From a virus (lineage: Duplodnaviria > Heunggongvirae > Uroviricota > Caudoviricetes), in the IMG/VR virus record IMGVR_UViG_3300029923_000009: DNA of 64,000 bases. One strand, given 5' to 3'. This document shows positions 45,121 through 63,271 of the stretch, piece after piece. A program made the position numbers and the translations under genes. Every line of letters begins with the position of its first letter. Position 1 is the stretch's first letter. The notes under the pieces were generated by a model, which saw only the letters and a program-made list of their open reading frames with translations, did no database searches and was not told the origin of the DNA.

Positions 45121-45140
45121 GAAATAAAAAAATATGTAAA

Positions 45141-48388: not shown

Positions 48389-48417
48389 GGCTAATTATTA
48401 AAAAAACAAAATATATA

Positions 48418-49131
48418 ATGAAAAAAGAATTAAAGCAATTTAAAATATTAAGCGAGTACGATTATAATCTAAAAAACACACAAAAAAGGTTATTTGAATC
48501 ATTTGTAACCATATCGGAAATAAATCGATATTCACATAGATTATCTGAATCGTTGTCTATGGAGTTGGATGCTACAAATTTAACCGAATCTGGTGATCAA
48601 CAAAATGTCTTGGATTTAATCGGTAGTAACCAATATGATGTTAATAATAATATTGAATTTAAGAATTCATTAAAATATGGTAATCGTGGTGAATTTTTAA
48701 GTGATTACACCGAAGATGAATATGGACAAATGAAAACATATAAACTGAAAGGTTATAATATTGGGTTTGCTATTAAGTTGGATGGTGACATAGTTTCACT
48801 TCATAATAATAGTGGTATTGGTGGGTTAGGTGGAGCTTTAGTTAAATCAGCTGTATCATTAGGTGGCACTAAAATGGATCATTTTGATGGATTTTTAACA
48901 GGATTATATTCAAAAAATGGGTTTAATGTTGTTAATTCAGATCAATGGAACGATGATTATTCCCCATCTGATTGGAAATACGTACCTGTAGACATATTTA
49001 ACCCTGATAGCTCGATTTACGCAAATACATTGAAGAAATTCCCAAGTGAAAATGAAATTACTCCAGAATTAAAACAGGAAATTAACTTATATGGTTCTGG
49101 AATGCCAGATGTTGTGTATCGCTCACTATAA
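48418..49131 (+). CDS. protein with C-terminal GNAT-like acetyltransferase fold (237 aa)
   Basis: Track start 48385 is TTG; ATG 48418; GIGGLGGALVKSAVSLG and GLYSKNGFNVV resemble GNAT motif A and the C-terminal GF motif. Confidence 0.5.
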   Translation: MKKELKQFKILSEYDYNLKNTQKRLFESFVTISEINRYSHRLSESLSMELDATNLTESGDQQNVLDLIGSNQYDVNNNIEFKNSLKYGNRGEFLSDYTEDEYGQMKTYKLKGYNIGFAIKLDGDIVSLHNNSGIGGLGGALVKSAVSLGGTKMDHFDGFLTGLYSKNGFNVVNSDQWNDDYSPSDWKYVPVDIFNPDSSIYANTLKKFPSENEITPELKQEINLYGSGMPDVVYRSL

Positions 49132-49151
49132 TATAAAAATTTAAATTTATA

Positions 49152-49853
49152 ATGTTTCAAAGCCTATTATTACACATCCCCCATTCAAGTACTTACATTC
49201 CAGATTCTTTTGGAAATATTAATGACTACACATTAATGGGAAATGTTGTTATTCAAACAGATTTATTAGTTGATGACTTATTTTACCACCCAGTAACTAC
49301 AAATGTTAAAACATTAAAATTTATTTATAGTCGGTTTTATTGTGATGTGGAAAGATATTGGGATGACAAAAAAGAACCAATGTCACTAATTGGACAGGGT
49401 GTATATTATAAACAATATTCTGATGGTTCATTAATTAATAGAACCGACTCAAAGGATGATATTAAATTAGTTTACAATGAGCATCACTCAAAATTAAACT
49501 ATATTTCCCAAAAACTTATTGCGGAAAATGGTTCTTGTTTAATCATTGATTGTCATTCTTTTACACCAACGAATGAAAATGAGCCAGATATATGTATTGG
49601 GGTTAATTATGATAAAAATGACCCAGGTCCTGAAACATTATGGTCTATTATAAATCATTTTATTGATAATGGGTATAAATTTAAGATAAATTATCCGTTT
49701 TCAGGATCAATATATCCATCAAAATATTTAAATAAAAACTTAAAATCTATTATGATTGAAGTAAATAAAAATATTTATTTGGGTAATGAGATTAAGTTTT
49801 CGAAATTAAAAAATACAATAAACGAATTATATCATAAATTGTTAAAATATTAA
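49152..49853 (+). CDS. N-formylglutamate amidohydrolase (FGase) family protein (233 aa)
   Basis: HIPHSSTYIP, SRFYCDVERY, LIIDCHSF and SIMIEVNKNIY resemble the conserved blocks of the FGase/zinc-amidohydrolase family (PHxG..P / sRlvvDvNR / DlHS / iEirqdLy). Confidence 0.5.
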   Translation: MFQSLLLHIPHSSTYIPDSFGNINDYTLMGNVVIQTDLLVDDLFYHPVTTNVKTLKFIYSRFYCDVERYWDDKKEPMSLIGQGVYYKQYSDGSLINRTDSKDDIKLVYNEHHSKLNYISQKLIAENGSCLIIDCHSFTPTNENEPDICIGVNYDKNDPGPETLWSIINHFIDNGYKFKINYPFSGSIYPSKYLNKNLKSIMIEVNKNIYLGNEIKFSKLKNTINELYHKLLKY

Positions 49854-50572
49854 TGAAAAATAAACTTTCAATTGTTGCAATTTCCGACCTTCACGGGTAT
49901 CTACCTGAAATAACCGAAGAAGCTGATATAATGATCATCGGTGGGGATATTTCTCCTTTAAATATTCAACGTAATAAACCTAAAACGAAAATTTGGCTTG
50001 AAACAACGTTTCTCGAATGGGTCAATAATTTACCAGTTAAGAAAGTATTCCTTGTGGCTGGTAATCATGATTTTGCGTTAGAGGGTTTATCTGATACTGA
50101 AAAATATTTTTTTGAAAAATTATTTGGCGGAAAACTTAAATATTTAGAAAACGAAACATTTAACCACGTTGATGATAACGGTTGTTCTTGGGTGATTTTT
50201 GGAACGCCTTATTGTCACATATTTAGTTCTGGTTGGGTATTTATGATACCAGATGATAATATGTATTTCAAATTTCTGAAAATTCCAGATGAAGTTGATA
50301 TAATTATTTCTCATGACCCGCCTTATGGTGTTGGTGAAGTTGATGTTATTTTGGAACAATATAATTTAAATGAACCAATCACGCATATTGGAAATAAACC
50401 TTTAGCAAAAAGATTGCAACAAATCAAATATAAATTTCTATGCTGTGGTCATATACATAGTGGTAGCCATATACCATATGAATTTAATGGTGGAAAATGT
50501 GTAAACGTTTCGATCAAAGATGAAGATTACCAACCAATCTATCATCCATTTTATTATACATTAGAAAAATGA
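49853..50572 (+). CDS. calcineurin-like metallophosphoesterase (239 aa)
   Basis: Motifs DLHG, GGD, GNHD, HD and GHIHSGSH in the canonical order; TAATG overlap with the upstream gene. Confidence 0.8.
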   Translation: MKNKLSIVAISDLHGYLPEITEEADIMIIGGDISPLNIQRNKPKTKIWLETTFLEWVNNLPVKKVFLVAGNHDFALEGLSDTEKYFFEKLFGGKLKYLENETFNHVDDNGCSWVIFGTPYCHIFSSGWVFMIPDDNMYFKFLKIPDEVDIIISHDPPYGVGEVDVILEQYNLNEPITHIGNKPLAKRLQQIKYKFLCCGHIHSGSHIPYEFNGGKCVNVSIKDEDYQPIYHPFYYTLEK

Positions 50573-50973
50573 TAGAACTAATAATATTTATAGGACTTAT
50601 CTTGGTGATCTCTTGGTATGGTGTTAAAGTATCAATAGGTGGTGCAAGTTTTGAAATATTTCCAATTAAACGATTTTTTACTAAATTAAATGTGATTAAA
50701 ATACAAAAAAAAGTAAACAAACAAGCTATTAGCGATGTACAAATGGGTGATTTCGGTAGATGGCTTGAAAAAAATTATGTTGGAGAATTTAATATTTATA
50801 ACACAACAATCACACCACCGAAAAAATTAGAAATATCAGATTTAATCGAAATATATAAAAAAGAAGTATTAAACTATAATGATACTTGCCCATTTTGTAA
50901 TTCAAAACACCTTCACTCATTTGTATTAAAACACACGAAATGTAAATCCTGTGACCAAATGTGGACTGATTAA
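50569..50973 (+). CDS. membrane-anchored zinc-ribbon protein (134 aa)
   Basis: N-terminal TM helix; C-terminal CPFCNSKH...CKSC; ATGA overlap. Confidence 0.5.
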   Translation: MIELIIFIGLILVISWYGVKVSIGGASFEIFPIKRFFTKLNVIKIQKKVNKQAISDVQMGDFGRWLEKNYVGEFNIYNTTITPPKKLEISDLIEIYKKEVLNYNDTCPFCNSKHLHSFVLKHTKCKSCDQMWTD

Positions 50974-51020
50974 ATTATATGATATTTGTTAAAATATTTT
51001 GATATATCAATTAAATTATT

Positions 51021-51029
51021 TACTTTTGT
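51021..51029 (+). promoter_or_regulatory. -7 box TACTTTTGT
   Basis: 33 nt before ATG 51062. Confidence 0.35.
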
Positions 51030-51061
51030 CACATAAAATAAATTATAAAAAAATAAATATT

Positions 51062-51244
51062 ATGAGCGTAAGGACGACAGCAGATGATGCATTGGAAAAT
51101 GCAAGAGAACACATATTAGATGCCTATAAGTCATTATTGGTGGTTATTAATCCAGATACTTGGGGTTCTGATTGCTATTCCGTAGAATTTAATAAAAAAA
51201 TTATGGATGCTATGAACCAATTAAATGAATTAAGAAAATTATAA
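51062..51244 (+). CDS. hypothetical protein (60 aa)
   Basis: Track start 50999 is non-ATG; ATG 51062; -7 box 51021-51029. Confidence 0.4.
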   Translation: MSVRTTADDALENAREHILDAYKSLLVVINPDTWGSDCYSVEFNKKIMDAMNQLNELRKL

Positions 51245-51246
51245 TA

Positions 51247-51468
51247 ATGAAAAATAATAATAATATTAAAACTGGAATAATCGATATTGATAATATATTA
51301 TCAAATGGGATTAATCCAACTGAATTAGAATTAATTATTGGCCCACCAACAGTTGGTATGAAACATATGTCAGTATATATGGAAAGAGCTAAAAGATTAA
51401 TGAAGGAAGCTGGTATTGGCGTTATTGAAACTAATACAGACCCAATTATAACTATCTGTAATGAATAA
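51247..51468 (+). CDS. hypothetical protein (73 aa)
   Basis: ATG ORF. Confidence 0.45.
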   Translation: MKNNNNIKTGIIDIDNILSNGINPTELELIIGPPTVGMKHMSVYMERAKRLMKEAGIGVIETNTDPIITICNE

Positions 51469-52162
51469 CGACACTATTAAAATATGTTTCATAGGGGACA
51501 TCCACGGAAAATCTGTTTGGAAAAAATTCATAAAAGATCCAACCATTAACTTTTTCGTGTTCTCTGGTGACTATGTTGATAATGATATGGGTATGGTTAT
51601 TTCTGATGAAGAAATGATTGAAAATTTTCAAGACATTATTGATTTCAAACGTAAAAATATGAATAGTGTTATTGTCCTAAAAGGGAACCACGATTTAAGT
51701 TACTGGTATTTAAACTATCCAATATTTAAATGTTCTCGTTTTAGGGAAAGTATTGCGATGGAACTAAACGACCTATATTCTTTCAATAAAGATTTATTCC
51801 AAAACGCTTGGCAATATAAAAATGTGGTTGCGACTCACGCTGGAATACAACATAATTGGTTTATAAACGAGTTTAAAGGTGATATCACACTAAACGTAGC
51901 TGATCAACTAAATAATCCGAAAGATGAAAATCAGTTAAATGCATTATATCAAGTTGGTAAAATTAGGGGTGGGTGGAAAGATGTTGGTGGTATATTTTGG
52001 GCTGATAAAAGTGAACTTAATAAATCATTAAAAGGAGTTATTCAGGTTGTTGGGCATAATAGAGTTAAAGATATTTCATATTATATAAATAAAAATTATG
52101 GTGAAATATATTTTATTGATTGCTTAGGCTATAAAGAAAACTGTCTAATATTAGAACTATAA
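51461..52162 (+). CDS. PPP-family (lambda phosphatase/ApaH-like) metallophosphatase (233 aa)
   Basis: GDIHG ... GDYVD ... GNHD motif series, spacing as in GDxHG/GDxVDRG/GNHE phosphatases. Confidence 0.75.
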   Translation: MNNDTIKICFIGDIHGKSVWKKFIKDPTINFFVFSGDYVDNDMGMVISDEEMIENFQDIIDFKRKNMNSVIVLKGNHDLSYWYLNYPIFKCSRFRESIAMELNDLYSFNKDLFQNAWQYKNVVATHAGIQHNWFINEFKGDITLNVADQLNNPKDENQLNALYQVGKIRGGWKDVGGIFWADKSELNKSLKGVIQVVGHNRVKDISYYINKNYGEIYFIDCLGYKENCLILEL

Positions 52163-52170
52163 TAATAATA

Positions 52171-52524
52171 ATGAAAAAGGAAAAATACCTTGAATATCGT
52201 AAAATATTTGAATCTAATTACCTGGGAATGATAAAATTAGGTAAACATGATTTGGGATTCGTTAATTTACATGATTTAAAAACTGGCATTTCAAGGTATA
52301 GTGAATTTGTATTTATTTATAGTTGTGATATAAATTGTAATTTTACAAATACAGTAAACTCAATTGATAGAAGAAAAAGGTTCATCACCAAATACGTTAA
52401 CCATCCAGCAATAAAAATAAAAATTGATTTTGATAACATACATCTAATTGATCGTTGGCCAGAGCGTTTTAAACAAATAACAAAATATTATAAAAATAAT
52501 AAAATAAATCATGGAATTAATTAA
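52171..52524 (+). CDS. hypothetical protein (117 aa)
   Basis: ATG ORF. Confidence 0.5.
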   Translation: MKKEKYLEYRKIFESNYLGMIKLGKHDLGFVNLHDLKTGISRYSEFVFIYSCDINCNFTNTVNSIDRRKRFITKYVNHPAIKIKIDFDNIHLIDRWPERFKQITKYYKNNKINHGIN

Positions 52525-52834
52525 AAATTATTTAGAATCATTACAGAAAATATACGATCATGTTGGGTTTGTAGAAGATTGGGTGATTTATCCTTTAGAT
52601 GATCAATTAAATAGGTATTGGGATGAGGATGGTGATAGTGTATATTATGCTGACACATATGAGGAGTTTGACTCTGAAGATGGTGGCTACTATGTTGATG
52701 AAATTTACAAGCAAAGATTTTACAACCAATGGGTTTATGTTGGTGATGATTTTACAATGATATTTTGTAACCCAGGGGTTGATGGTATGAAATACTTTAG
52801 ACTATTTGATAATTCAAAAAGAATGAAAAAATAA
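52511..52834 (+). CDS. hypothetical acidic protein (107 aa)
   Basis: ATG ORF overlapping the upstream gene by 14 nt. Confidence 0.5.
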   Translation: MELIKNYLESLQKIYDHVGFVEDWVIYPLDDQLNRYWDEDGDSVYYADTYEEFDSEDGGYYVDEIYKQRFYNQWVYVGDDFTMIFCNPGVDGMKYFRLFDNSKRMKK

Positions 52835-52846
52835 TAAAATAAATAT

Positions 52847-53236
52847 ATGAATAAAGAATTTGTCTCACTTGAAATTGCAAAGAAACTAAAAAGGCTTGGT
52901 TTTACTGAACCTTGTTTTGCTTGTTACGATAACTGCGGTATGCTATCAACGTATTCAGATATTTTTAACTCTAAAAACTATAATAGAACTGAAACTTTAA
53001 TGTGTTCAGCTCCATTACATCAACAAGTGATTAATTGGTTATACAATGAGTATAAGTTAATTGTTGGTGTTGAAACTGTTTCATTAAATGAATGGAAAGG
53101 ATTCGTATGTGTTTCAACAATGGCATTGGAAGATGTTGTTGAAATTAACGAAACTTATCCCGATGAAGATAGATATAAAGGAATGGAACAGGCTATTAAT
53201 ATCGCATTGGATATTGAAATTTTAGCATTATTTTAA
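52847..53236 (+). CDS. hypothetical protein, paralog family B (129 aa)
   Basis: MNKEFVSLEIAKKLKRLGF...APLHQQVINWLYNEY; third copy of the family. Confidence 0.55.
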   Translation: MNKEFVSLEIAKKLKRLGFTEPCFACYDNCGMLSTYSDIFNSKNYNRTETLMCSAPLHQQVINWLYNEYKLIVGVETVSLNEWKGFVCVSTMALEDVVEINETYPDEDRYKGMEQAINIALDIEILALF

Positions 53237-53274
53237 AATGTGTTTATTTATTTGGTTTATTGAGTATTTATTAA

Positions 53275-53283
53275 TAAATTTGT
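53275..53283 (+). promoter_or_regulatory. -7 box TAAATTTGT
   Basis: 33 nt before ATG 53316. Confidence 0.35.
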
Positions 53284-53315
53284 AACATTAAAAATAATAA
53301 CAAATAAAACAAACC

Positions 53316-54188
53316 ATGAAAAAAGAAACCTTAAGAGAAAACATAGCAAAACTTGTTAGAAGCGGAATTCAGGAAATAAAAGAAAAACAATTCATAACTG
53401 AAGACCTTATCACATTCGGTAGTGGAAGACCTAATTACGATCAGGTTGTTATCTTAGCTGGTGGTACGGGGGTTGGTAAAGGATTTGTATTAAATAATCT
53501 TGTTGGTATACAGGGGAAAGTTTTTGATGTAGACCAACTAAAATCTCTTGGTATAAGAAGTAAGTTGATTAAAGACAAGGTTTTAAGTTTAACAGGTAGA
53601 GATATTACTGAACTTGATTTACGTAATCCTTATGACGTTTCATTTCTACACGATGTATTCAAAGAACTACAAATTGCCGATAAGCAAGTTGAAAATTTAT
53701 TAAATGCAATGGTTGGAAGAGAAAATAAACCTAATTTGATTTTTGATGTTACCCTCGCAAATTTAGCAAAATTAGAATATGTTTCAAATCAAGTTGTTGA
53801 ATATGGTTATTCAATGGAAAATATTCATATTGTATGGATAATTAATGATATTGAGGTTGCAAGAGCTCAGAATAAAAATAGACCAAGGGTTGTATCGGAA
53901 GCTATGTTTACACAAATTCACGATCAAGTATTTCTTAGTTTAAAAAATATACTTACAGGTAGATTTCCAATCTTAGATTATATGAGCGGTGATTTTTATA
54001 TTGTTTTTAACCAAAAGAATGTCGATACTGAAATGTCTTTTTCACCAATGGGCGGAAGATATGTAAATAAAACAAACTATATTAAAATCAAAGGAAAAAA
54101 TAAACCAATGAAAACCATTGATGAAATAACCCAAGCTGTTATTGATAAAATAGTTCTTTATTCTGGAACAGACAACACACCGCTATAA
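53316..54188 (+). CDS. P-loop NTPase, possible (poly)nucleotide kinase (290 aa)
   Basis: Walker-A-like VVILAGGTGVGKGF near the N-terminus; hhhhD-like IFDVT later; which kinase family is not resolvable by eye. Confidence 0.5.
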   Translation: MKKETLRENIAKLVRSGIQEIKEKQFITEDLITFGSGRPNYDQVVILAGGTGVGKGFVLNNLVGIQGKVFDVDQLKSLGIRSKLIKDKVLSLTGRDITELDLRNPYDVSFLHDVFKELQIADKQVENLLNAMVGRENKPNLIFDVTLANLAKLEYVSNQVVEYGYSMENIHIVWIINDIEVARAQNKNRPRVVSEAMFTQIHDQVFLSLKNILTGRFPILDYMSGDFYIVFNQKNVDTEMSFSPMGGRYVNKTNYIKIKGKNKPMKTIDEITQAVIDKIVLYSGTDNTPL

Positions 54189-54227
54189 TATCATCATTAT
54201 TAAAATAAAATATTAAAATTACTTAAT

Positions 54228-54252
54228 AGACTTGCTTTTGTGAGTCTTTTTT
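54228..54252 (+). terminator. rho-independent terminator
   Basis: AGACT TGCTTTTGTG AGTCT followed by TTTTT. Confidence 0.45.
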
Positions 54253-54332
54253 ATGTGTAAAAATAGTATATAATAATTGATGATGATTTAGAAGAAAAAT
54301 AATTTTCTTACTATTTATAGTAAAAGAAAATT

Positions 54333-55319
54333 ATGGATAATCTAATAGAACAAACGCATCAAATAAAAATATATGGAAGAAATATTAGCTATTATAAAAA
54401 AATTGGGTATAATTGTGTTTATGGCGAAATTATAACTGTAACCTCAAGTAATCTAAACCCTTCAACATCTGAAAGAGTTAAGTGTGTTTGCTCTGAATGT
54501 GGAAAAATTGTGGATGTACCTTTTAAACAATATATGAACTGTAAAAAGGGATTTGTATGTTCTAGTAAATGTAAAATGAGAAAAACAAATAGAAATTTAA
54601 AAGATGAATTTGGGGTTACTAATTTCTCTCAATTAAAAGAAATTAAAGAAAAAAAGAAACAATCAGCAATAAAAAAATATGGTGTTGATAATATTTCGCA
54701 ATCTAAAGAAATTAAAGAACAGAAAAAACAATCTTCACTTAGGGTTTATGGTGTTGATAATATATCACAATCTGAGATTATTAAAAAACAGAAAATCACT
54801 ACTTGTAAATTACACTACGGTGTCGAATATGCGCTCCAGTCTACTAAGATTAAGAATAAAATAATTAAGAAATTACAATTAAAATATGGAGACAATATTA
54901 CTAATATTAGTCAAGTTGCGGAAATTATGGATAAAAAATTTTTAACTGGAATATGTGCAAAAAAATATACTCTTCCATCTGGAAGAATAGTAAGTTATCA
55001 AGGTTATGAACATTATGGGTTACAATATTTGTTAGCCAATGGATATGTAGAAGATGATATTGTGATAGGTAATAAAGAAATCGAAAATATAATAGGAAAA
55101 ATTATGTTTTACGATTTAAAAGTAAATAAGAATAGAAGATACTTTCCAGACATTTATATTAAAAGTGAGAATAAAATATACGAAGTAAAATCAACTTACA
55201 CAATAAAATTAAACGTTGATTTAATTAAAATGAAAGAAGATGCCGTTATCAGAGGTGGCTTTCCGCATGAATTTCTTATTTTTGATGCTAAAGGAAATAG
55301 AAAAGAGCATATTATTTAA
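54333..55319 (+). CDS. repeat-containing PD-(D/E)xK nuclease, candidate homing endonuclease (328 aa)
   Basis: N-terminal Cys cluster (CVCSECGK...CSSKC); three tandem ~21-aa repeats (YGVDNISQSKEIKEQKKQS); C-terminal FPDIYI...IYEVKS matches the PD-(D/E)xK core; flanked by terminator 54228-54252. Confidence 0.5.
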   Translation: MDNLIEQTHQIKIYGRNISYYKKIGYNCVYGEIITVTSSNLNPSTSERVKCVCSECGKIVDVPFKQYMNCKKGFVCSSKCKMRKTNRNLKDEFGVTNFSQLKEIKEKKKQSAIKKYGVDNISQSKEIKEQKKQSSLRVYGVDNISQSEIIKKQKITTCKLHYGVEYALQSTKIKNKIIKKLQLKYGDNITNISQVAEIMDKKFLTGICAKKYTLPSGRIVSYQGYEHYGLQYLLANGYVEDDIVIGNKEIENIIGKIMFYDLKVNKNRRYFPDIYIKSENKIYEVKSTYTIKLNVDLIKMKEDAVIRGGFPHEFLIFDAKGNRKEHII

Positions 55320-55356
55320 ATAAAGTTAATTGACTTGTTTTAACCAATAAATTAAA

Positions 55357-55370
55357 GTACATTTGTAATA
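55357..55370 (+). promoter_or_regulatory. class-II promoter core GTACATTTGTAATA
   Basis: 22 nt before ATG 55392 (HAD phosphatase). Confidence 0.45.
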
Positions 55371-55391
55371 TAATTTAAATATGTAAAATTT

Positions 55392-55949
55392 ATGAAGTAC
55401 CTATTTCTTGATTTTGATGGTGTTTTAAACGTTATACCCGAAGGATTTGATGATTTTGGTTCGATATTTCATAAACATTTTGTGTCAAATCTTAAACGAA
55501 TAATTGATGAGACTGATTGTAAGATCATAATTACATCTTCTTGGAGACAAAGTGGTTTAAAATTTATTCAAGATATGTGGGGATTTAGAAATTATCCAGG
55601 GGAAATACTTGATGTGACACCTACACTACGGTTACAAAAAGGTGGTTCTATTCAATTTTGGAATGATAAATTATCAAGGCACCCAACAGAATCAATTGGT
55701 GGATATTCAATACCAAGAGGGTGTGAAATAGAATATTGGCTCAATCACGAAAGTGAAAAATTTGGAGAAATTGAATCGTGGGCTTGTGTTGACGACGACA
55801 CAGATTTTTTATTTAACCAAAAAGATAACTATGTTCAATGTAGCGAAAACCATGATCACATAGATAAAATAGATTACGGTTACGGTTTAACAGATATATG
55901 TACACAAAAGGTAATTGATATTCTAAATAATGTTAAAATAATTGCTTAA
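55392..55949 (+). CDS. HAD-superfamily phosphatase (185 aa)
   Basis: Motif I FLDFDGVLN (DxDGV), motif II IIITSSW, motif IV CVDDDTD; class-II promoter 55357-55370. Confidence 0.7.
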   Translation: MKYLFLDFDGVLNVIPEGFDDFGSIFHKHFVSNLKRIIDETDCKIIITSSWRQSGLKFIQDMWGFRNYPGEILDVTPTLRLQKGGSIQFWNDKLSRHPTESIGGYSIPRGCEIEYWLNHESEKFGEIESWACVDDDTDFLFNQKDNYVQCSENHDHIDKIDYGYGLTDICTQKVIDILNNVKIIA

Positions 55950-55974
55950 ATCGATTATTTAAATTATCTTTGCA

Positions 55975-55983
55975 TTATAAAAT
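55975..55983 (+). promoter_or_regulatory. -7 box TATCTTTGC
   Basis: 17 nt before ATG 56000. Confidence 0.4.
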
Positions 55984-55999
55984 TAAATAATAACTTATT

Positions 56000-56248
56000 A
56001 TGGAAAAAGAAGAAATTAAATGGGTATTTGAAGAGGCTAAAATAGTTATTGAAAATAGACCAAGAACATATATTGAATGGTATGAACCTCATAATGTATT
56101 GGTTGGTGAAATGGTTCATATGAGATATGAACGAAGAGATTTTGGTGGTGGACTTATTAGCTATGTTAACACATATAATAATATAGCTACAGTTGATGAA
56201 GGTAAATTTTTCGATGCTTTAGAAAATTTATATCAATTAAACAAATAA
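56000..56248 (+). CDS. hypothetical protein (82 aa)
   Basis: ATG ORF; -7 box 55975-55983. Confidence 0.5.
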   Translation: MEKEEIKWVFEEAKIVIENRPRTYIEWYEPHNVLVGEMVHMRYERRDFGGGLISYVNTYNNIATVDEGKFFDALENLYQLNK

Positions 56249-56262
56249 AAAGTAAAAATGTT

Positions 56263-56511
56263 ATGGAACAAAAAGTATTTAAAACGGTTGAAGAAATAAA
56301 GAATTGGTGGTACACGAACGAAGGTTCTCATTATAGTTTTAGTGGTTTACTAACTTATGTAGAACGATCAATATGTGAATATCCTGTTAAGCCAAATAAA
56401 CCTACTCTTTCACAAAAACATTCAGCTAATATGGCATCAGAATATGCTAAAGAACTATTAGTATATGAGAATGAATTACTTCAATCATATCAAAGTGAAT
56501 TAAAAAAATAA
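56263..56511 (+). CDS. hypothetical protein (82 aa)
   Basis: ATG ORF. Confidence 0.5.
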   Translation: MEQKVFKTVEEIKNWWYTNEGSHYSFSGLLTYVERSICEYPVKPNKPTLSQKHSANMASEYAKELLVYENELLQSYQSELKK

Positions 56512-56519
56512 TTTATATT

Positions 56520-56933
56520 ATGGAAAAAATAGATGAAGATAAAACAGATTATTTTGTAACAAGAACATCTTTGACGGATGTGATTGCAACTACCGAATAT
56601 TTTGAAGCTGTCGAGAATGCTTTAGATACTAGGAATGAAGATTCCACATTTTTTGAAATTGATATTAACGGTGGGTTATATAAACATATTTGCCCTGTTT
56701 ATATCGATGAAATGATTAAAATACTTACCACTATTAAAGAAGATGGTTGTAATTTCGCCCAAATAGTATATCATTCTGATCATTTGTGTTGTGAGCTTAT
56801 TGGATTAGAAATTAGACGATCAACTCCTGATGAGATAGATATGCATATTAAATATGAAAAATCAGAAAAAGAGAAAGAAAAACAAATCATAGAATTAGAA
56901 AAACAAATCAGAGAAATCAAAAAGTCAATATAA
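56520..56933 (+). CDS. hypothetical protein (137 aa)
   Basis: ATG ORF; C-terminal EKEKEKQIIELEKQIREIKK coiled-coil. Confidence 0.5.
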   Translation: MEKIDEDKTDYFVTRTSLTDVIATTEYFEAVENALDTRNEDSTFFEIDINGGLYKHICPVYIDEMIKILTTIKEDGCNFAQIVYHSDHLCCELIGLEIRRSTPDEIDMHIKYEKSEKEKEKQIIELEKQIREIKKSI

Positions 56934-56975
56934 ATATATTGATATAGTATTAATTTAAAAAATAAAAAATATAGA

Positions 56976-57605
56976 ATGAATAATTTATTTATAGTTTTCA
57001 CGGTACTATGCGTACTAACAGTTTCGGTATTATACATACTTGGGTATTTTACTTTTTTAGTTAAAAAAATTTCCTTGACTAATTGGTTATTTATTGGTCT
57101 TGGTGTATTATTACTTTCAAATTTTATCTTATTAATAGGTAAAGCGAGTGAGGTGAATGAAAAATTAAATTTAGTCATAAAGGCACCTAAAGAATTTTTA
57201 ACAACAATAAAAAAAGATTCGACTATTTCGGATGCTAAACTATACCAGTATCTTCTTAAAACAAGGGTTGGAAACCCTGAAATTATATTTTGTCAAGCTA
57301 AACATGAATCATCTTCTTACAGTTCACCTTTATATTTAAGAGCAAATAACTTGTTTGGTATGAAAATATCGAATTCAAGAGTTTGTGTTGGTGGTGCAGA
57401 AAGCGGTGAATTTCAGAAATATAGTAATTGGAAAGAATCGGTAACGGACTATATTATATATGGGTTTGAAAATAATTTAAATACACTTTCACAGGCTGAA
57501 TATCTAAGATTTTTATCAACAGGTGTTTATGGTAGTGATCCACAATATACTAATAAAATCAGTAAAATGATCAAAGAAACAGATTTTAAAAAATTAGAAA
57601 ACTAA
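56976..57605 (+). CDS. membrane-anchored N-acetylglucosaminidase (FlgJ/glucosaminidase-domain) peptidoglycan hydrolase (209 aa)
   Basis: Two N-terminal TM helices; FCQAKHESSSYSSPLYLRANNLFGMK matches the glucosaminidase-domain signature (QAxxESgwg.S.La...NNlFGiK). Confidence 0.65.
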   Translation: MNNLFIVFTVLCVLTVSVLYILGYFTFLVKKISLTNWLFIGLGVLLLSNFILLIGKASEVNEKLNLVIKAPKEFLTTIKKDSTISDAKLYQYLLKTRVGNPEIIFCQAKHESSSYSSPLYLRANNLFGMKISNSRVCVGGAESGEFQKYSNWKESVTDYIIYGFENNLNTLSQAEYLRFLSTGVYGSDPQYTNKISKMIKETDFKKLEN

Positions 57606-57608
57606 AAT

Positions 57609-57794
57609 ATGGAAAGTAATTTTAAATATCATATATTCGAATATCCTTACGGTACAACCCGTTATAATCAAATATTAGAGGATAAATTAAATGAAATGGG
57701 AAATATGGGTTATAAGGTTATTTCAAGTCAATTGAAGCCTTTTAAAAATGTAACAAGTAATGCATATGAAATGATTGTAATATTTGAAAAATAA
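57609..57794 (+). CDS. hypothetical protein (61 aa)
   Basis: ATG ORF. Confidence 0.45.
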   Translation: MESNFKYHIFEYPYGTTRYNQILEDKLNEMGNMGYKVISSQLKPFKNVTSNAYEMIVIFEK

Positions 57795-57803
57795 ATAATT
57801 TTA

Positions 57804-58064
57804 ATGAAATTAATAAAGAAGAAAATAAAATCTGATAGGGTTATAACTGACTCAATTATTGGTAAGTGGATAAAGTTAACCAAAATATATTTATATGAGC
57901 ATTACTATGAAACGGATGAATTTTATATTGTTACATATAGAGTTTTACCAACTGCTGGTTTAGAATATATGATTGTTCGAAAAGATGATAATATCATAAT
58001 AAAACAAGATATGCAAGATATGAAACTACCTAAAAAAATAATTTCATTATTAGAACAATTTTAG
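57804..58064 (+). CDS. hypothetical protein (86 aa)
   Basis: ATG ORF. Confidence 0.45.
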   Translation: MKLIKKKIKSDRVITDSIIGKWIKLTKIYLYEHYYETDEFYIVTYRVLPTAGLEYMIVRKDDNIIIKQDMQDMKLPKKIISLLEQF

Positions 58065-58098
58065 GGTTAATTGTTTTGCTTAAATCAATTAATTTACT

Positions 58099-58107
58099 TA
58101 TCTTTGT
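58099..58107 (+). promoter_or_regulatory. -7 box TATCTTTGT
   Basis: 50 nt before ATG 58157. Confidence 0.45.
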
Positions 58108-58156
58108 ATTATAAAATTATTAAACAGATAAAAACAATTTAAAAAATTAAAACATT

Positions 58157-58435
58157 ATGGAGTTTGTATGTGAAGAAATCAGGAATTTGATTATTAACAA
58201 GTCATTAGAAAAATACAGTATTACCGTTAAGGACATTAAAAAGTTTAAAAATGCATCCGTCAACGGTGTTCATTGGCAAGAGAATTATACATTAACAGAA
58301 AATGAATATAAAAACTGGTTTCATTCATGTATTAACACTTTGGAAGAAAAATTTCCTGAAATGCATCCAGATATGGTTAAAACAAAATTCTTATATGAAT
58401 ATGCGTCTGTTTATGCTTTAAAAATTGAAGAATAG
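58157..58435 (+). CDS. hypothetical protein (92 aa)
   Basis: ATG ORF; early promoter -7 box 58099-58107. Confidence 0.5.
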   Translation: MEFVCEEIRNLIINKSLEKYSITVKDIKKFKNASVNGVHWQENYTLTENEYKNWFHSCINTLEEKFPEMHPDMVKTKFLYEYASVYALKIEE

Positions 58436-58587
58436 TGGGTCAGGAGAAATACTATCATAAATTTGATGAACTTACTGATATTTGTTTAATATGTGACATT
58501 TCAAAGCGAAAAATACCATATGTTGGAGACGGTATAACCGAAGAAATTACGGTAAATTTATTACTGAATATTCATTCGATAAAGTAG
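58435..58587 (+). CDS. possible small Cys-containing ORF with GTG start (50 aa)
   Basis: GTG overlaps the upstream TAG (TAGTG); CLIC plus other Cys; speculative. Confidence 0.25.
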   Translation: MGQEKYYHKFDELTDICLICDISKRKIPYVGDGITEEITVNLLLNIHSIK

Positions 58588-58631
58588 TGTATACTAAAGA
58601 ATTTATTAATTGTAAACCAAAATAATAATAT

Positions 58632-58904
58632 ATGGAGCTGAACGATTTAATAGGTAAAAACTTCAAATATATCTCCAAATATGGTGATAAGAAGGAATGT
58701 GACTGGATTGGAACTGTTGAAAATTGTATAATAATCCAAGAATGTAGAGGTTCCAAATGGGAAATGTTTAAACCAGTTATTAAAATAAAATCAGTTGCTG
58801 GACCAGTATATGAATTAAATGAATTAATATTTTTTACATTTAAACCCAAAGTAGATACTCATTTGAGTACTGAAAATAAAAATAACTTATTAATAATAAA
58901 ATAA
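58632..58904 (+). CDS. hypothetical protein (90 aa)
   Basis: ATG ORF; contains a TACTCA-TT-TGAGTA palindrome near its 3' end. Confidence 0.5.
   Translation: MELNDLIGKNFKYISKYGDKKECDWIGTVENCIIIQECRGSKWEMFKPVIKIKSVAGPVYELNELIFFTFKPKVDTHLSTENKNNLLIIK
58856..58869. repeat. TACTCA-NN-TGAGTA palindrome (copy 6, intragenic)
   Basis: TACTCATTTGAGTA inside the 3' end of ORF 58632-58904. Confidence 0.4.
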
Positions 58905-58922
58905 TAGATTATATAATATAAT

Positions 58923-59186
58923 ATGACAGAAGAAAAACTTAAAGAAATGCTCCAAAATAGATATCGCGATACAAAGTCGTATTGGAGTTTAGCACCTGTA
59001 GATTCAAAATATGCCGAAATGGTAATTGATGTTATGAAAGACGTTTATAATCAGGGCGTATCCGACGCGATAAATAATGCTAAATTAATAGATAAAAAAA
59101 TAGAATACGATGGTGTTAGGGCTGGTGGTTATCATATCGAACGTGTTATAGATGAAGATTCAATTTTAAAACTATTAATGTCATGA
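58923..59186 (+). CDS. hypothetical protein (87 aa)
   Basis: ATG ORF. Confidence 0.5.
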   Translation: MTEEKLKEMLQNRYRDTKSYWSLAPVDSKYAEMVIDVMKDVYNQGVSDAINNAKLIDKKIEYDGVRAGGYHIERVIDEDSILKLLMS

Positions 59187-59425
59187 AAAAATTAATACCA
59201 CTTATTTTTGCTATTTTACTATTTTCCTCGTGTACAAAGGATTTATCAAAAGTTTATGACTATGAGGTTATTGATACAACTTATGTCGCAAAAAATGGTT
59301 ATGGAACTATACTCGATTATATAGTTATTATTAAAATTGATACCACATATTATTCAGCTACTATAGATAATTATAGTAGATTAGTTGAAATAAATAAAAA
59401 ACTTAAAATTAAAAATCTAAAATAA
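59183..59425 (+). CDS. lipoprotein (80 aa)
   Basis: MKKLIPLIFAILLFSSC signal peptide with lipobox Cys; ATGA overlap. Confidence 0.5.
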   Translation: MKKLIPLIFAILLFSSCTKDLSKVYDYEVIDTTYVAKNGYGTILDYIVIIKIDTTYYSATIDNYSRLVEINKKLKIKNLK

Positions 59426-59429
59426 AATT

Positions 59430-59678
59430 ATGAATTCACTATCTTATTTATTACGATCTCTTATGGGATTGGATGTTCCAGCTCAAAAAAAATGTAAAAT
59501 TTGTAAAACTATTATACCATTAAATGGTGAACATTTAGATACATATAAATGCTCGGTTAAAACAATTGGTTTTGATGAAACAGGTGTACAAATTGAAACA
59601 AAAGAAGATGTTAATTATCGTATTGTGCAATGTCCTAACTGTTTAAATGAAATTAAATTATATTCACTTCAAAAATAA
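59430..59678 (+). CDS. zinc-ribbon protein (82 aa)
   Basis: CKIC ... CPNC. Confidence 0.5.
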   Translation: MNSLSYLLRSLMGLDVPAQKKCKICKTIIPLNGEHLDTYKCSVKTIGFDETGVQIETKEDVNYRIVQCPNCLNEIKLYSLQK

Positions 59679-59681
59679 TCT

Positions 59682-59921
59682 ATGGAAAACTTCATTGAAT
59701 TAACTAAATTCGTTGATCGTTTAAAAAAGATTGGTATTAATCTTAATTTATGTGCTAATTTTCCGTGGATTTATATTGATAAAATTAATAATAAAAAAGT
59801 TGTTGAAAAATTCCAAGCAAATCATGGTTTTACACTTGGTTATTATCCAATAAAACGTGATGGGGATTTTAAATTTAGTGATTTGAATGAAATATTTAAA
59901 CTAATTAGAAAATACAAATAA
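59682..59921 (+). CDS. hypothetical protein (79 aa)
   Basis: ATG ORF. Confidence 0.5.
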   Translation: MENFIELTKFVDRLKKIGINLNLCANFPWIYIDKINNKKVVEKFQANHGFTLGYYPIKRDGDFKFSDLNEIFKLIRKYK

Positions 59922-59924
59922 TAT

Positions 59925-60605
59925 ATGGAAAATTATAAGATAATCACTGACGAAGTTGCTTTGTGTAATTTTATAGATTGGTTGCCAGAGTTAGAAGATG
60001 GGGAGGGATACTATGTTACATTATTATGTCGTAATAAATATACCGATAAATTATTAAAAGATAAGGTTCAATTGAAGAGAATAACATCAAATAAAGAATT
60101 TTTATTTGATAAAATTAAACAAATGGAATGTGAACTTGGCACATATAAATACAAAGGTGAACCAATTCCTGTTGAATCAATGTGTTTATATATCACACCA
60201 AACCCAAGAAGTTACGAGAAAGCTGGTAAGAATTTAGCTAAAAAGTTAATAGATTTATGTTTTGATAAATATAGCGGATATAACCCACAAGCTGAAGCAT
60301 TAACAGCTATCCAAAAAGCTTGTAGTAGAACTGTTTTTATGGATTTTGACTTTGATAATACAACTATTGAAGAAATGAAGTCAAGTATTGTTGAAGTAAT
60401 TAACGAGAGTGCAATAACTTTTGTGCAAACTCACGGGGGATTTCACGTTCTTATTGAAGTATCAAAGATTGAAGATAAATATAAAAAGACTTATTATAAT
60501 GGTATAACTAAATTACCTAATTGTGATGCCAGGGGTGACGGATTACTGCCCATATGTGGCTGTTTTCAAGGAGGAGTAACCCCACTATTAATTAAGGCTA
60601 TTTAG
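59925..60605 (+). CDS. hypothetical protein (226 aa)
   Basis: ATG ORF. Confidence 0.55.
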   Translation: MENYKIITDEVALCNFIDWLPELEDGEGYYVTLLCRNKYTDKLLKDKVQLKRITSNKEFLFDKIKQMECELGTYKYKGEPIPVESMCLYITPNPRSYEKAGKNLAKKLIDLCFDKYSGYNPQAEALTAIQKACSRTVFMDFDFDNTTIEEMKSSIVEVINESAITFVQTHGGFHVLIEVSKIEDKYKKTYYNGITKLPNCDARGDGLLPICGCFQGGVTPLLIKAI

Positions 60606-60689
60606 AATAATTTATAAATAACAAGTTTTTGGAAATTAATTTAAATAAAAACGTGAATAAATTCCATTCCCGTATATTTATAAATAGAA

Positions 60690-60869
60690 ATGAATATGAA
60701 AAATAAAAAAACAACAATTAATTTTACGATTGATCCAGATCTAAAATATGATTTTATTAAAATTAGTGATGAATTTGGTTTTAATAGATCTAAAATGATT
60801 TCTAATTTTATTAGAAAATGGTGTGAAGAAAATAAGAGTATTAACAATTTAAAGAATGACGAAAGATGA
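60690..60869 (+). CDS. putative ribbon-helix-helix (Arc/CopG-like) DNA-binding protein (59 aa)
   Basis: ATG ORF absent from the track, which shows a minus-strand ORF here; TTINFTIDPDLKYDFIKISDEFGFNRSKMISNFIRKW fits a beta-strand + two-helix RHH pattern; its stop overlaps the start of 60856 by 14 nt. Confidence 0.4.
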   Translation: MNMKNKKTTINFTIDPDLKYDFIKISDEFGFNRSKMISNFIRKWCEENKSINNLKNDER

Positions 60870-62142
60870 ATTTATTAAAAAAGCAAAAGCAAAACATGGT
60901 GACAAATATGATTATTCACTGGTTGAATATGTAAAATCAAATATCAAAGTAATCATAATTTGTCCAGAACATGGCGAATTTTTACAATTACCAAATTCCC
61001 ATTTGGTGGGTAATGGGTGTAACAAATGTGGAATAAAATTAAAAAGTGATAAACTTAGGCACAACAATGATATTTTTATCTCTAAAGCAATTGTGATACA
61101 TGGAGATAAATATAATTATACTAAGATAGATTATAAAAATGCTCAAACTAAAGTATGTATCATTTGTCCTATACATGGTGAATTTTGGCAAACACCAAGT
61201 GATCATTTACAAGGTAGGGGATGTTCTATGTGTGGAAATGTTAATAGATCTTTAAGCAAAACTAATAATACTGAATACTTTATTAAAAAATCTAATAAAA
61301 AACATAATTTTAAATATGATTATTCCAAGACTAATTATGTAAATAGTGAGAGTGACGTATGTATAGTTTGCCCAGAACATGGGGAGTTTTATCAAAAAGC
61401 TAATTCACACATGATTGGTTATGGATGTTCTAAATGTGGCGGAAACTTTATGGATTTAGATACATTCATTGAAAAATCTAAAGAAAAACATAATAATAAA
61501 TTCACATATGAAAATGTTGATTACATAAATTCAATAATTAAAGTAGATATAACATGCCCGATTCATGGCGAATTTTGGCAAACACCAAATAGTCATTTAG
61601 ATGGTAAAGGATGCCCTAAGTGTTCAGGTAGTTATATGGATTATAATTATTTTATTGAAAAAACAAAACTAATTCATAGAGATAAATATGATTATTCAAA
61701 GGTAGAATATAAAGGAACCAATATAAAGGTTAAAATAATATGCCCTATTCACGGAGAATTTTGGCAAACACCTCATAATCATTTAAAAGGTCAGGGATGT
61801 CCTAAATGTAATGAAAGTAAAGGTGAAAAAATTGTAAATCAAACATTAACAAATTTTAAACTTAAATTTATTCGGGAACATAAATTTGATGATTGTAGAT
61901 ATAAATATTCTCTCCCATTTGATTTTTATATTCCTAAATATAATACTTGTATTGAATACGATGGGGAACAACATTATAAACAAGTAGATAGATTTGGTGG
62001 AATAGAAGGTTTTGAATCAATTCAAAGAAATGATAAAATAAAAACCCAATATTGCCTTGATAATAATATTAAGTTAATTAGAATTCCTTATACGGAATTT
62101 AATAATATAGAAGAAATATTAAATAAAGAAATTTATGATTGA
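60856..62142 (+). CDS. multi-zinc-finger protein with C-terminal Vsr/DUF559-like PD-(D/E)xK nuclease domain, candidate homing endonuclease (428 aa)
   Basis: Five tandem ~45-aa modules (CPxHGEFxQxPxxHLxGxGCxKCg); C-terminus PFDFYIPKYNTCIEYDGEQHY...QRNDKIKTQYCLDNNIKLIRIP matches the DUF559 very-short-patch-repair-like endonuclease pattern. Confidence 0.65.
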   Translation: MTKDEFIKKAKAKHGDKYDYSLVEYVKSNIKVIIICPEHGEFLQLPNSHLVGNGCNKCGIKLKSDKLRHNNDIFISKAIVIHGDKYNYTKIDYKNAQTKVCIICPIHGEFWQTPSDHLQGRGCSMCGNVNRSLSKTNNTEYFIKKSNKKHNFKYDYSKTNYVNSESDVCIVCPEHGEFYQKANSHMIGYGCSKCGGNFMDLDTFIEKSKEKHNNKFTYENVDYINSIIKVDITCPIHGEFWQTPNSHLDGKGCPKCSGSYMDYNYFIEKTKLIHRDKYDYSKVEYKGTNIKVKIICPIHGEFWQTPHNHLKGQGCPKCNESKGEKIVNQTLTNFKLKFIREHKFDDCRYKYSLPFDFYIPKYNTCIEYDGEQHYKQVDRFGGIEGFESIQRNDKIKTQYCLDNNIKLIRIPYTEFNNIEEILNKEIYD

Positions 62143-63271
62143 AAATTTAATTTTTGAAGCTATTGTTGGTAGCGTTGCTTATGGTACAAATATTGAAACC
62201 AGTGATTTAGATAAAAAGGGTATTTTTTTATGCCCTATTGATAATTTATTATCATTTGGCTATACCGAGCAAATTAATGTAACTAAAGATGAAACGTACT
62301 ATGAGGTTCGTCGATTTTTAGAATTATGTTCTGTCGGAAATCCGACCTGTTTAGAATTGCTATTTTCTGATGATGAATATATTTTACATACATCACCTCA
62401 ATTTGAACTAATACGTGAAAATAGGGATGTGTTTGTAACAAAAAAATGCGCAAATGCCTTTACTTCATATGGTTACAGTCAGATTTCAAAGGCAAATTCG
62501 TTGGGTAAAAAATTAAATTACAATGAAAATGATTATAAATTAAAGACACCTTTAGATTTTATATATTTTTATAATAATGGTAAAACATATTCTTTTAAAG
62601 AATATTTGAACGACAATGGGCTATTACAAGAAAAATGTGGCTTAGTTCGATTGGATCATATGAAAGATTGTTATGCCGTTTATTATGATTACAATAATGA
62701 TGGTTATAGAGGAATAATTGGTGAAAATAGTAATGAGGTTAGATTGTCATCTATTAAAAAAGGAGAAACGCCATTTGTGATGATATATTATAATGTTGAA
62801 GCATATTCAAAGTTCATGAAGGAGTGGAAGGAGTATAATGAATGGTTAAAAAATAGGAACACCCAAAGATATGTTGATGTTAAAAAGCACGGACAAACTC
62901 TAAGTGGTTCATTTATAGATGGTAAGAACCTATTGCATTGTCGGAGGCTCATCGATGTGGGGGTTTCGATTGCCACTACAGGCACTTTTACCGTTAAACG
63001 CCCAAATGCCGACTATTTACTTTCAATCAAACGTGGTGAAGTTCCTTTAGATAAAATAATTGAAGATGCAGAACGCGATATCGCTGGTTTACAGGAATTG
63101 TATGATAAATCAAATTTACCAGAAAAAGTTGATCCACTATTTGTAAAAGAATTATTACTTAAGATTAGGAAAATGCCAATTGATGATATTAATATAATAT
63201 CAACCAAAAGCCTTCCATTTGATTCTAATAAAATAATTGATGAAATATTAAATGAAGAAATTAAACAATGA
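62135..63271 (+). CDS. Pol-beta-superfamily nucleotidyltransferase, RlaP/PF10127-like (378 aa)
   Basis: N-terminal IVGSVAYGTNIETSDLDKKGIF (GS-x9-SDxD NTase motif) followed by RFLELCSVGNPTCLELLFS, which resembles the second conserved block of the family; ATGA overlap. Confidence 0.65.
   Translation: MIENLIFEAIVGSVAYGTNIETSDLDKKGIFLCPIDNLLSFGYTEQINVTKDETYYEVRRFLELCSVGNPTCLELLFSDDEYILHTSPQFELIRENRDVFVTKKCANAFTSYGYSQISKANSLGKKLNYNENDYKLKTPLDFIYFYNNGKTYSFKEYLNDNGLLQEKCGLVRLDHMKDCYAVYYDYNNDGYRGIIGENSNEVRLSSIKKGETPFVMIYYNVEAYSKFMKEWKEYNEWLKNRNTQRYVDVKKHGQTLSGSFIDGKNLLHCRRLIDVGVSIATTGTFTVKRPNADYLLSIKRGEVPLDKIIEDAERDIAGLQELYDKSNLPEKVDPLFVKELLLKIRKMPIDDINIISTKSLPFDSNKIIDEILNEEIKQ

Follow-up and report, generated by a model that had tools for sequence, protein, structure and literature searches.

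Described systems and the locus under study

Homing endonucleases of the EDxHD/Vsr-like type, whose prototype is I-Bth0305I (PDB 3R3P) and which include the T4-type Hef, have been described previously (PMC2677866, PMC3239194). In another group, reported from ICP1, T5-like and Vibrio phages, CapR/DUF723/DUF4397 zinc-finger arrays are found in T5orf172 homing endonucleases, and the idea of a modular zinc-finger array has already been published for these enzymes (Barth et al. 2023, PMC10448857). Additionally, Arc, a ribbon-helix-helix (RHH) protein of IS605, represses the TnpA/TnpB promoter, that is, the promoter of its own nuclease genes (bioRxiv 10.64898/2026.09.24.754181). The present work concerns three genes in a 64,000-nucleotide stretch of DNA from a virus of the class Caudoviricetes (IMG/VR record IMGVR_UViG_3300029923_000009), hereafter called the window: two open reading frames (ORFs) encoding putative repeat-armed nucleases, ORF1 and ORF2, and a small RHH-like gene overlapping the start of ORF2 (Table 1).

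All three ORFs were found at the positions given by an earlier interpretation made from the letters alone (the sequence-only reading), and ORF1 and ORF2 proved to be nucleases with repeat arms. The families to which they belong carry homing-endonuclease annotations, the catalytic residues of both are intact and their folds are those of nucleases. It is probable, judging from sequence comparisons, that both are free-standing homing-endonuclease-type genes, one of them under an RHH controller. Homology, fold and presence/absence polymorphism support this interpretation, the polymorphism of ORF1 being a segment swap. The assignment is made with considerable confidence for ORF2 and is likely for ORF1, and the role of the RHH protein as transcriptional controller of the cassette is an evenly balanced proposition.

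ORF2: a zinc-module array and a Vsr-like nuclease domain

ORF2 belongs to a family that tblastn detected in 1568 phage records, where it frequently bears a homing or HNH endonuclease annotation, and that comprises at least 8000 protein homologs. The protein matched phrog_559 (E 3e-102), Pfam DUF723 (50.5 bits, cut-off 20.9, four stretches) and the 'treble clef' family DUF4379 (45.3 bits, cut-off 24.5), and its CapR score of 22.7 bits was slightly under the cut-off of 24.2. The sequence-only reading had described five tandem Cys/His modules of approximately 45 aa; their number was confirmed and their size was not, since the conserved unit comprises 57 aa (aa 3-59, 71-127, 139-195, 201-257 and 263-319) and recurs with a period of 68, 68, 62 and 62 aa. 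A C[PT]xHGxF motif is found at aa 36, 104, 172, 234 and 296, with GCxxC after each. Identity between units amounts to 47-61% at the protein level and 60-69% at the DNA level, which indicates that the array is old.

Across 120 ORF2 homologs, the number of repeats per protein ranges from 4 to 11. In the 716 units that these homologs provide, the C/H/C/C ligands and the scaffold are nearly invariant, and positions 26-27, 43, 45-46, 49 and 51 are hypervariable, with an entropy of 3.0-3.7 bits; the five units of ORF2 itself differ at these positions. Such variability would be compatible with modular DNA recognition. According to a bolder proposal, each ORF2-type module would read a few base pairs via positions 43, 45, 46, 49 and 51 beside the zinc knuckle, the arrays would be reshuffled by recombination and re-targetable by design, and the RHH-headed cassette would act as a natural 'socket' controlling any plugged-in nuclease, a speculation that is considered rather doubtful.

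Regarding the C-terminal domain, phrog_9084/7140, annotated as 'homing/intron-encoded endonuclease', matched aa 309-422. In an alignment of 27 such domains, D356, E367, G370, H373 and D393 are invariant and E324 and K396 nearly so, and the profile built from them matched the Vsr-like domain of AbaSI (E 3e-4) and, marginally, I-Bth0305I (E 0.16). The hidden Markov model alignment to 3r3p places LDFYL on the mutated D196A position and rDkiK on D222; since the 3R3P crystal carries D196A/H213A, the correspondence of the ORF2 histidine to that structure is one that we infer. Searches of ORF2 with Pfam DUF559 and Vsr returned no match at E<=1, and no T5orf172 (GIY-YIG) domain was matched. The C-terminal domain of ORF2 belongs to the Vsr-like/EDxHD branch of the nuclease fold and does not carry the canonical PD-(D/E)xK motif. 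Thus, in the earlier description of a Vsr/DUF559-like domain the Vsr-like part holds, without a Pfam match to either family, and of the two nucleases that it assigned to PD-(D/E)xK only ORF1 has the canonical core.

Like the EDxHD/Vsr-like enzymes, ORF2 has the equivalent acidic and His residues (E324, D356, H373 and D393), a DNA-binding region at the N-terminus with the nuclease at the C-terminus, and the status of a free-standing phage gene. However, its arm consists of five CapR/DUF723/DUF4379 zinc modules, while theirs is of the NUMOD/helix-turn-helix (HTH) kind, and, unlike the prototype, to which its similarity is marginal, it lies outside any intron or intein and is preceded by an RHH gene. 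With the T5orf172 arrays of PMC10448857 it shares tandem 'beads on a string' zinc-finger DNA-binding modules, alleles that vary in repeat number and presence and are in some cases frameshifted, and a location at exchange boundaries, whereas its nuclease domain is Vsr-like and not T5orf172/GIY-YIG. A term search of the text of that paper found no RHH partner. In some ORF2 homologs, arrays of this type are joined instead to T5orf172 or to a Vsr domain of the classical 'YEFHGDFWHGNP' form, and the occurrence of these arrays on several nuclease types indicates that the domains are shuffled. Among individual proteins (P0093, P0052, P0105, P0142 and P0151), DUF7487 repeats were seen fused to DUF559 or DUF723, and DUF723 arrays to T5orf172 or classical Vsr.

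The ORF2 site: an empty allele and alternative occupants

Diverged relatives of the locus, designated here by L and a number, were recovered by a metagenome scan with the downstream RlaP protein. In L019, the closest divergent relative, the flanking proteins are 84-87% identical to those of the window, and RHH, ORF2 and ORF1 are all absent. At the ORF2 site, homology with L019 ends at window position 60542 and restarts at 62120, and approximately 41 nt join the two flanking genes there. The RHH and ORF2 cassette is a precise intergenic indel between the 226-aa gene and the RlaP gene, and L019 presents a clean empty site; consequently, the last codons and the stop of ORF2 are made by the first bases of RlaP. 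The overlap of the RHH gene with the ORF2 start, which had been recognized in the sequence-only reading, measures 14 nt, and the ORF2 stop overlaps the RlaP start by 8 nt. The comparison with related phages that had been proposed as a check therefore revealed a genome without either nuclease gene, in which the ORF2 site is cleanly empty.

In other relatives the slot is occupied. ORF2-type genes with approximately 2 to 7 repeats are present in the window (428 aa), L018, L032 (355 aa), L035 (502 aa) and L051, and LAGLIDADG genes in L020 (291 aa), L028-31 and L050 (362 aa), with LAGLIDADG_3 scores of 28.1 and 32.5 bits in L020 and L028, respectively (cut-off 22.5). The LAGLIDADG enzymes, none of which occurs in the window, have a fold unrelated to that of ORF2 and share the same RHH-headed slot in L020 and L028. 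The ORF2-type gene of L018, with about 2 repeats, is a 201-aa remnant bearing a -1 frameshift at a G-run in the first zinc module (L018 9400-9420), which reflects either gene decay or, the assembly being an older one, a sequencing error in the homopolymer. In the LAGLIDADG-bearing L029, the RlaP gene downstream is called in two pieces of 59 and 281 aa (4194-5302) and is intact in the sister contigs L028 and L030.

The modules of the slot differ in their degree of conservation. Identity to L018 amounts to 81% for RHH, 56% for the nuclease domain and 91% for RlaP, and identity to L028 to 84% for RHH and 58% for RlaP; moreover, homology between L018 and the window starts just upstream of RHH, the gene before it being unrelated. 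These discontinuities mark exchange boundaries like those that PMC10448857 describes near phage homing endonuclease genes (HEGs).

The RHH gene and its upstream element

A 59-aa RHH ORF at 60690-60869, missing from the ORF track, had been postulated by the sequence-only reading. That it is a real gene is indicated by purifying selection, with ratios of nonsynonymous to synonymous substitution rates (dN/dS) of 0.09-0.36, and it is predicted by public gene-calling programs with a length of 57 or 59 aa. It probably starts at the second ATG, at 60696, giving 57 aa, since the first ATG is missing from three relatives. Only 11 homologs were found, all within this phage clade, and a scan of IMG/VR with the RHH profile gave no match. 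The 12-sequence alignment revealed the invariant core KKxTINFTID..LK..F...S...NRSK..SN.I, after which the tail is short and poorly conserved. Profile matches were to the Arc-like phrog_582 (E 1.8e-4), RelB/DinJ TIGR02384 (E 0.0017) and DinJ in PDB (E 0.86), and sub-threshold matches among the 12 members included RelB (7/12) and RHH_9 (7/12), as well as RHH_3, RHH_1 and RepB.

In every RHH context examined, comprising 7 distinct haplotypes, the next gene encodes an endonuclease and shares an 11-17 nt overlap with RHH, RlaP comes after it, and none of these contexts holds an RHH copy without an endonuclease. The RHH proteins are 62-84% identical where paired with Vsr-like versus LAGLIDADG nucleases. 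Ten bases of the upstream element (GTATATTTAT) are invariant in six diverged loci, the remaining spacer being unconserved, and the window has one exact copy of the element, with near matches at chance level. The GTATATTTAT element is a candidate promoter or operator. This arrangement resembles that of IS605 Arc in that a small DNA-binding gene lies directly upstream of, and overlaps, the nuclease gene in a mobile unit, with a conserved DNA element upstream; unlike in IS605, the partner is a homing endonuclease and not a transposase/TnpB, and repression by the RHH protein of the window is presumed. Selfish nuclease elements of the restriction-modification type also have controllers, the C proteins, which are HTH and not RHH proteins. 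In the window, the controller would be an RHH protein and its partner is a homing endonuclease instead of a restriction enzyme. In the literature searched, no paper reports free-standing homing endonucleases with RHH partners.

In placing a small RHH gene first, in overlap with a larger toxic enzyme, the cassette follows the gene order of type II toxin-antitoxin systems, and RelB/DinJ antitoxins are among the best profile matches of the protein. It could be supposed, then, that RHH and nuclease form an addiction pair in which the RHH protein neutralises the nuclease directly, as RelB/ParD-type RHH antitoxins do. However, a type II antitoxin would be expected to co-evolve with one cognate toxin family, whereas the same RHH accompanies nucleases of two unrelated folds, Vsr-like and LAGLIDADG, and it is unlikely that it would neutralise both directly. 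In addition, a protein of 57 aa with so short a tail has no obvious toxin-binding extension, and ORF2 homologs in the two cultured phages examined lack such a partner. Since the partner nuclease changes fold, an antitoxin function is very improbable. Of the two roles that the sequence-only reading had offered, autoregulation is favoured by the linkage of RHH to the nuclease slot, and that of an antitoxin-like partner fits poorly with the pairing to two unrelated nuclease families.

Alternatively, the RHH protein could be a resident phage regulator, for instance of the RlaP RNA-repair genes, lying outside a mobile unit whose endonucleases repeatedly invaded the RHH-RlaP junction as their target. 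The sole endonuclease-free relative, L019, also lacks RHH, and RHH without an endonuclease was not found among the contexts examined; furthermore, the start of L018 homology just upstream of RHH, after an unrelated gene, indicates that RHH travels with the endonuclease side. Although RHH shows higher conservation than the endonuclease and is retained when the endonuclease family changes, and although free-standing HEGs typically insert between conserved genes (PMC10448857), a resident regulator appears unlikely, and a controller belonging to the cassette is preferred.

ORF1: architecture and locus

ORF1 matches Pfam DUF7487 (PF24308) over its full length (135.3 bits, cut-off 27, profile positions 3-218 of 220), as well as phrog_3339 and phrog_12131, both annotated as 'homing endonuclease', and has 510 homologs. 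DUF7487 is named by no paper in the literature searched. In the AlphaFold2 (AF2) model, which has a pLDDT of 95.2, the nuclease domain is predicted to adopt a TnsA-like fold with an intact E..PD..ExK motif, and both the restriction-endonuclease-like fold and the E...PD...(D/E)xK signature by which the PD-(D/E)xK superfamily is recognized were found. The protein has the core E226...P272-D273...E284-x-K286 and the stretch FPDIY...YEVKS, and G224, E226, D273, E284, K286, S287 and T290 are invariant in 58 aligned sequences of the family. A Foldseek search with the whole model gave weak matches only, every E being >1e-3.

The sequence-only reading had attributed to ORF1 a Cys cluster, three 21-aa repeats and a PD..E.K core. 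The cluster (C51, C53, C56, C70, C76 and C80) and the core were verified; the repeats have a period of 23 aa, with four clear copies from aa 93, 116, 139 and 162 and a degenerate one at 185. The Cys cluster of the N-terminus, which gave weak matches to zf_Tbcl_2 (E 0.005) and to CxxC-x17-CxxC (E 0.002), is a probable zinc ribbon. The model displays six helices at regular spacing, the number of 23-aa repeats differs among the 58 aligned homologs, and the array is presumed to be a DNA-binding arm. ORF1 thus shares with DUF7487 and phrog_3339/12131 a full-length match and the combination of repeats with a PD-(D/E)xK domain, but differs in its small number of repeats and in an additional zinc-ribbon domain at the N-terminus, which is common only to its closest homologs.

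At this locus, blastn breakpoints fall at window 54252/55975 and L019 3872/5014, and the 1.1 kb of L019 between its breakpoints is unrelated, carrying a 98-aa ORF, a HAD gene diverged to 25% identity and a 70-aa ORF. Homology with the ORF1-less L019 runs through the hairpin at 54228-54247 as far as window 54252, and the hairpin therefore belongs to the flank and not to an ORF1 cassette. The terminator-containing spacer (54204-54252) has a second, 88%-identical copy at L019 2861-2909, upstream of the kinase-like gene, which makes it a repeated intergenic element.

The surroundings of ORF1 suggested another role, namely that it is a working part of the neighbouring RNA-repair set, an RNA- or nucleic-acid-processing nuclease acting with HAD_SAK_2 and RlaP. 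ORF1 and its 54-60% identical homologs adjoin HAD_SAK_2 genes in three of the four phages examined, and the region of the window also has an RNA ligase, RlaP and phosphatases. However, the adjacent HAD genes are mutually non-orthologous (25-27% identity) in phages that carry several HAD paralogs, L019 retains a HAD gene without ORF1, more distant DUF7487 homologs occur in unrelated contexts, one of them beside an HNH_3 gene, and the PHROG families of ORF1 are annotated as homing endonucleases. This role is therefore judged quite improbable, and a homing-endonuclease-type gene is the preferred assignment for ORF1. HAD_SAK_2 as a general conserved target or partner of ORF1 was likewise rejected, since the HADs are non-orthologous and the distant homologs lack the association, and the adjacency is treated as local synteny. 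The HAD_SAK_2 gene has its own TAcaTTTG promoter-like element at 55358-55365. In L055 (4638-5510), a distant DUF7487 homolog adjoins an HNH_3 gene and a Dam-type methyltransferase, and this region may be an endonuclease island.

Proposed mode of action

From these features we infer DNA cleavage, homing, target sites and RHH repression. The five CapR/DUF723-type zinc modules of ORF2 would bind a long DNA site and the C-terminal Vsr-like/EDxHD domain would cut it. The analogy of I-Bth0305I and other homing endonucleases of phages would place the cut in cassette-less genomes. Repair from a cassette-bearing genome would then copy the gene together with nearby markers. ORF1 would do the same job by means of its N-terminal zinc ribbon, its 23-aa helical repeats and its canonical PD-(D/E)xK domain. 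The RHH protein would repress the cassette's own promoter via the conserved upstream element, and the gene overlap of 11-17 nt would couple endonuclease translation to that of RHH, so that repression and translational coupling together would keep the nuclease scarce.

Several observations weigh against this proposal. L019 is the only empty-site genome recovered, and a deletion there fits as well as an insertion elsewhere. The difference from L019 at ORF1 is a swap of a 1.7-kb segment including the HAD gene, with no clean insertion; of the two 'inserted cassettes' of the sequence-only reading, ORF2 is accordingly a precise insertion relative to L019 and ORF1 is not. All Pfam and NCBIfam matches of the RHH protein lie below curated cut-offs, yet they are consistently of RHH type, and no RHH gene was seen upstream of ORF2 homologs in the two cultured phages examined (KE12 and KP13-7). 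Finally, in relatives with flanks of only 52-62% identity the slot is likewise filled by the ORF2-type gene, itself diverged to a similar degree, a picture closer to long residence or domestication than to recent invasion.

The nucleases could indeed be domesticated, no longer homing and kept for the benefit of the phage, for example to cut competing phages, satellites or host DNA, as exemplified by ICP1 Odn. Besides the persistence at one locus, such a function would suit the intactness of every catalytic residue and zinc ligand and the fact that the ORF2 protein is unchanged in 35 blocks of a public assembly collection, and PMC10448857 documents domestication of such genes. On the other hand, the closest divergent relative lacks both genes, an unrelated LAGLIDADG enzyme substitutes for ORF2 in the same slot, one allele is frameshifted, the repeat number varies from about 2 to 7 and no match to a known defence system was obtained, so that membership of such a system was rejected. 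Absence, replacement, frameshift, repeat variation and the lack of a defence match are signatures of dispensable selfish genes, and domestication is regarded as a minor possibility beside homing.

Promoter and terminator signals

Both genes had been described in the sequence-only reading as bracketed by terminator and promoter signals, a description that the present analysis does not support. The scan gave 93 sigma-70-like sites against 94.4 expected from shuffles, that is, no excess, and the only + strand terminator-like hairpin near ORF1 or ORF2 is the one at 54228-54247, in the flank. Neither side of ORF2 carries a terminator, and the ORF2 stop codon falls inside the start of the next gene.

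The phage has a regular intergenic motif of its own, AACAAATTTCATTT-N~20-TATCTTTGTAT(T)AT, a TAnnTTTG element of the Bacteroidota -7 type that is accompanied by a conserved upstream box. It lies in front of at least 25 small genes, for example at 1094-1174, 3590-3657, 5707-5785, 6727-6789, 17173-17253 and 31110-31194, and is absent upstream of ORF1 and of the RHH gene. This motif points to a Bacteroidota host and to a single large class of co-regulated, probably early genes. Another class of promoter-like element, GTACATTTGTA, was observed upstream of a different gene set (23786-23845, 37735-37888, 41082-41371, 45051-45140 and, at the HAD gene after ORF1, 55358-55365).

Genomic context

ORF1 and ORF2 lie in the accessory region of a large phage. 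In the window nearly all genes are on the + strand and the GC content is 24-32%. No compositional break occurs at ORF1 or ORF2, whose GC (0.25-0.27) is the same as that of the window, and this match gives no sign of recent foreign origin; no paralogs of either ORF were found elsewhere in the window. Proteins identical to those of the window were found on many contigs from peat and fen metagenomes, for example JGI 3300028763 and 3300029989; these contigs, of which the longest measure ~263 kb or more (GC 27%), represent the same phage and are therefore uninformative on polymorphism. When 12 kb was searched at near identity in a set of 50,697 phage records, no close relatives were found, and scans of IMG/VR with the flanking proteins returned distant, non-syntenic loci only.

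Both endonuclease genes lie within an RNA-repair-like set (window 47313-63271), whose members are listed in Table 1. The accessory region also encodes a GmrSD_N-like protein (31653-32501), a 527-aa HATPase_c_3 (MORC/GHKL-type) protein (36151-37734) and an SPFH/Band 7 protein (19221-20048). Just downstream of the RlaP region, on the opposite strand, a 104-aa T5orf172/MUG113 (GIY-YIG-like) gene was observed in L014 (10988-11302) and L016 (7421-7735), ~4 kb past the window end, and in L028 (6307-6621), a possible third, minimal endonuclease-type gene.

Table 1. Features of the two endonuclease loci and neighbouring genes, in window coordinates (a dot in the strand column marks a segment given without strand).
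Feature	Position	Strand	Basis
RNA ligase	47313-48344		
FGase	49152-49853		
Two metallophosphatases	49853-50572, 51461-52162		
Zeta/P-loop kinase-like gene	53316-54188		
Terminator-like hairpin and T-run, between upstream P-loop kinase-like gene and ORF1	54228..54255	+	8-bp stem
Variable segment 1: ORF1 and HAD_SAK_2 gene	54253..55974	.	blastn breakpoints vs L019
ORF1, 328 aa, DUF7487-family putative free-standing homing endonuclease	54333..55319	+	PF24308, PHROG, AF2 model
ORF1 N-terminal beta-rich domain, Cys cluster, probable zinc ribbon	54333..54563	+	sequence, model, weak profile matches
ORF1 array of 23-aa 'YGVxNxSQxxEIKxxK' helix-loop repeats	54564..54947	+	repeat analysis, alignment, model
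ORF1 PD-(D/E)xK nuclease domain; E226, D273, E284, K286	54948..55316	+	
HAD_SAK_2 phosphatase gene, co-varies with ORF1	55392..55949	+	Pfam, blastn
Glucosaminidase-domain protein	56976-57605		
Variable segment 2: RHH and ORF2 cassette, diverged 3' end of upstream 226-aa gene	60543..62119	.	blastn breakpoints, junction alignment
Cassette-specific conserved element CCCGTATATTTAT(A/G)AnTATAA, 8-16 nt upstream of RHH start codon	60669..60689	+	six diverged loci
RHH-like gene, 57 aa (alternative ATG 60690), presumed transcriptional controller of cassette	60696..60869	+	alignment, dN/dS, profile matches
ORF2, 428 aa, zinc-finger array and Vsr-like/EDxHD putative homing endonuclease	60856..62142	+	phrog_559, DUF723, DUF4379
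Five CapR/DUF723-type treble-clef zinc modules (array 60862..61812)	60862-61032, 61066-61236, 61270-61440, 61456-61626, 61642-61812	+	
ORF2 Vsr-like (EDxHD-type) nuclease domain; E324, D356, E367, H373, D393, K396	61813..62139	+	
RlaP-type nucleotidyltransferase gene, conserved directly downstream of endonuclease slot in all relatives	62135..63271	+	

Significance

Both nucleases are ordinary members of known, very common families, and the RHH-headed slot with interchangeable endonuclease families is the only point of novelty, a modest one. For cleavage and homing tests, a substrate is at hand in the empty site of L019, and the rigid scaffold of the zinc unit, with its few hypervariable positions, offers concrete candidate specificity determinants on a small enzyme. 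The presence of an RHH gene with its upstream element at the head of a slot occupied by a Vsr-like enzyme in some phages and by a LAGLIDADG enzyme in others suggests that free-standing homing endonucleases may have a dedicated transcriptional controller, comparable to the C proteins or to the Arc protein of IS605.

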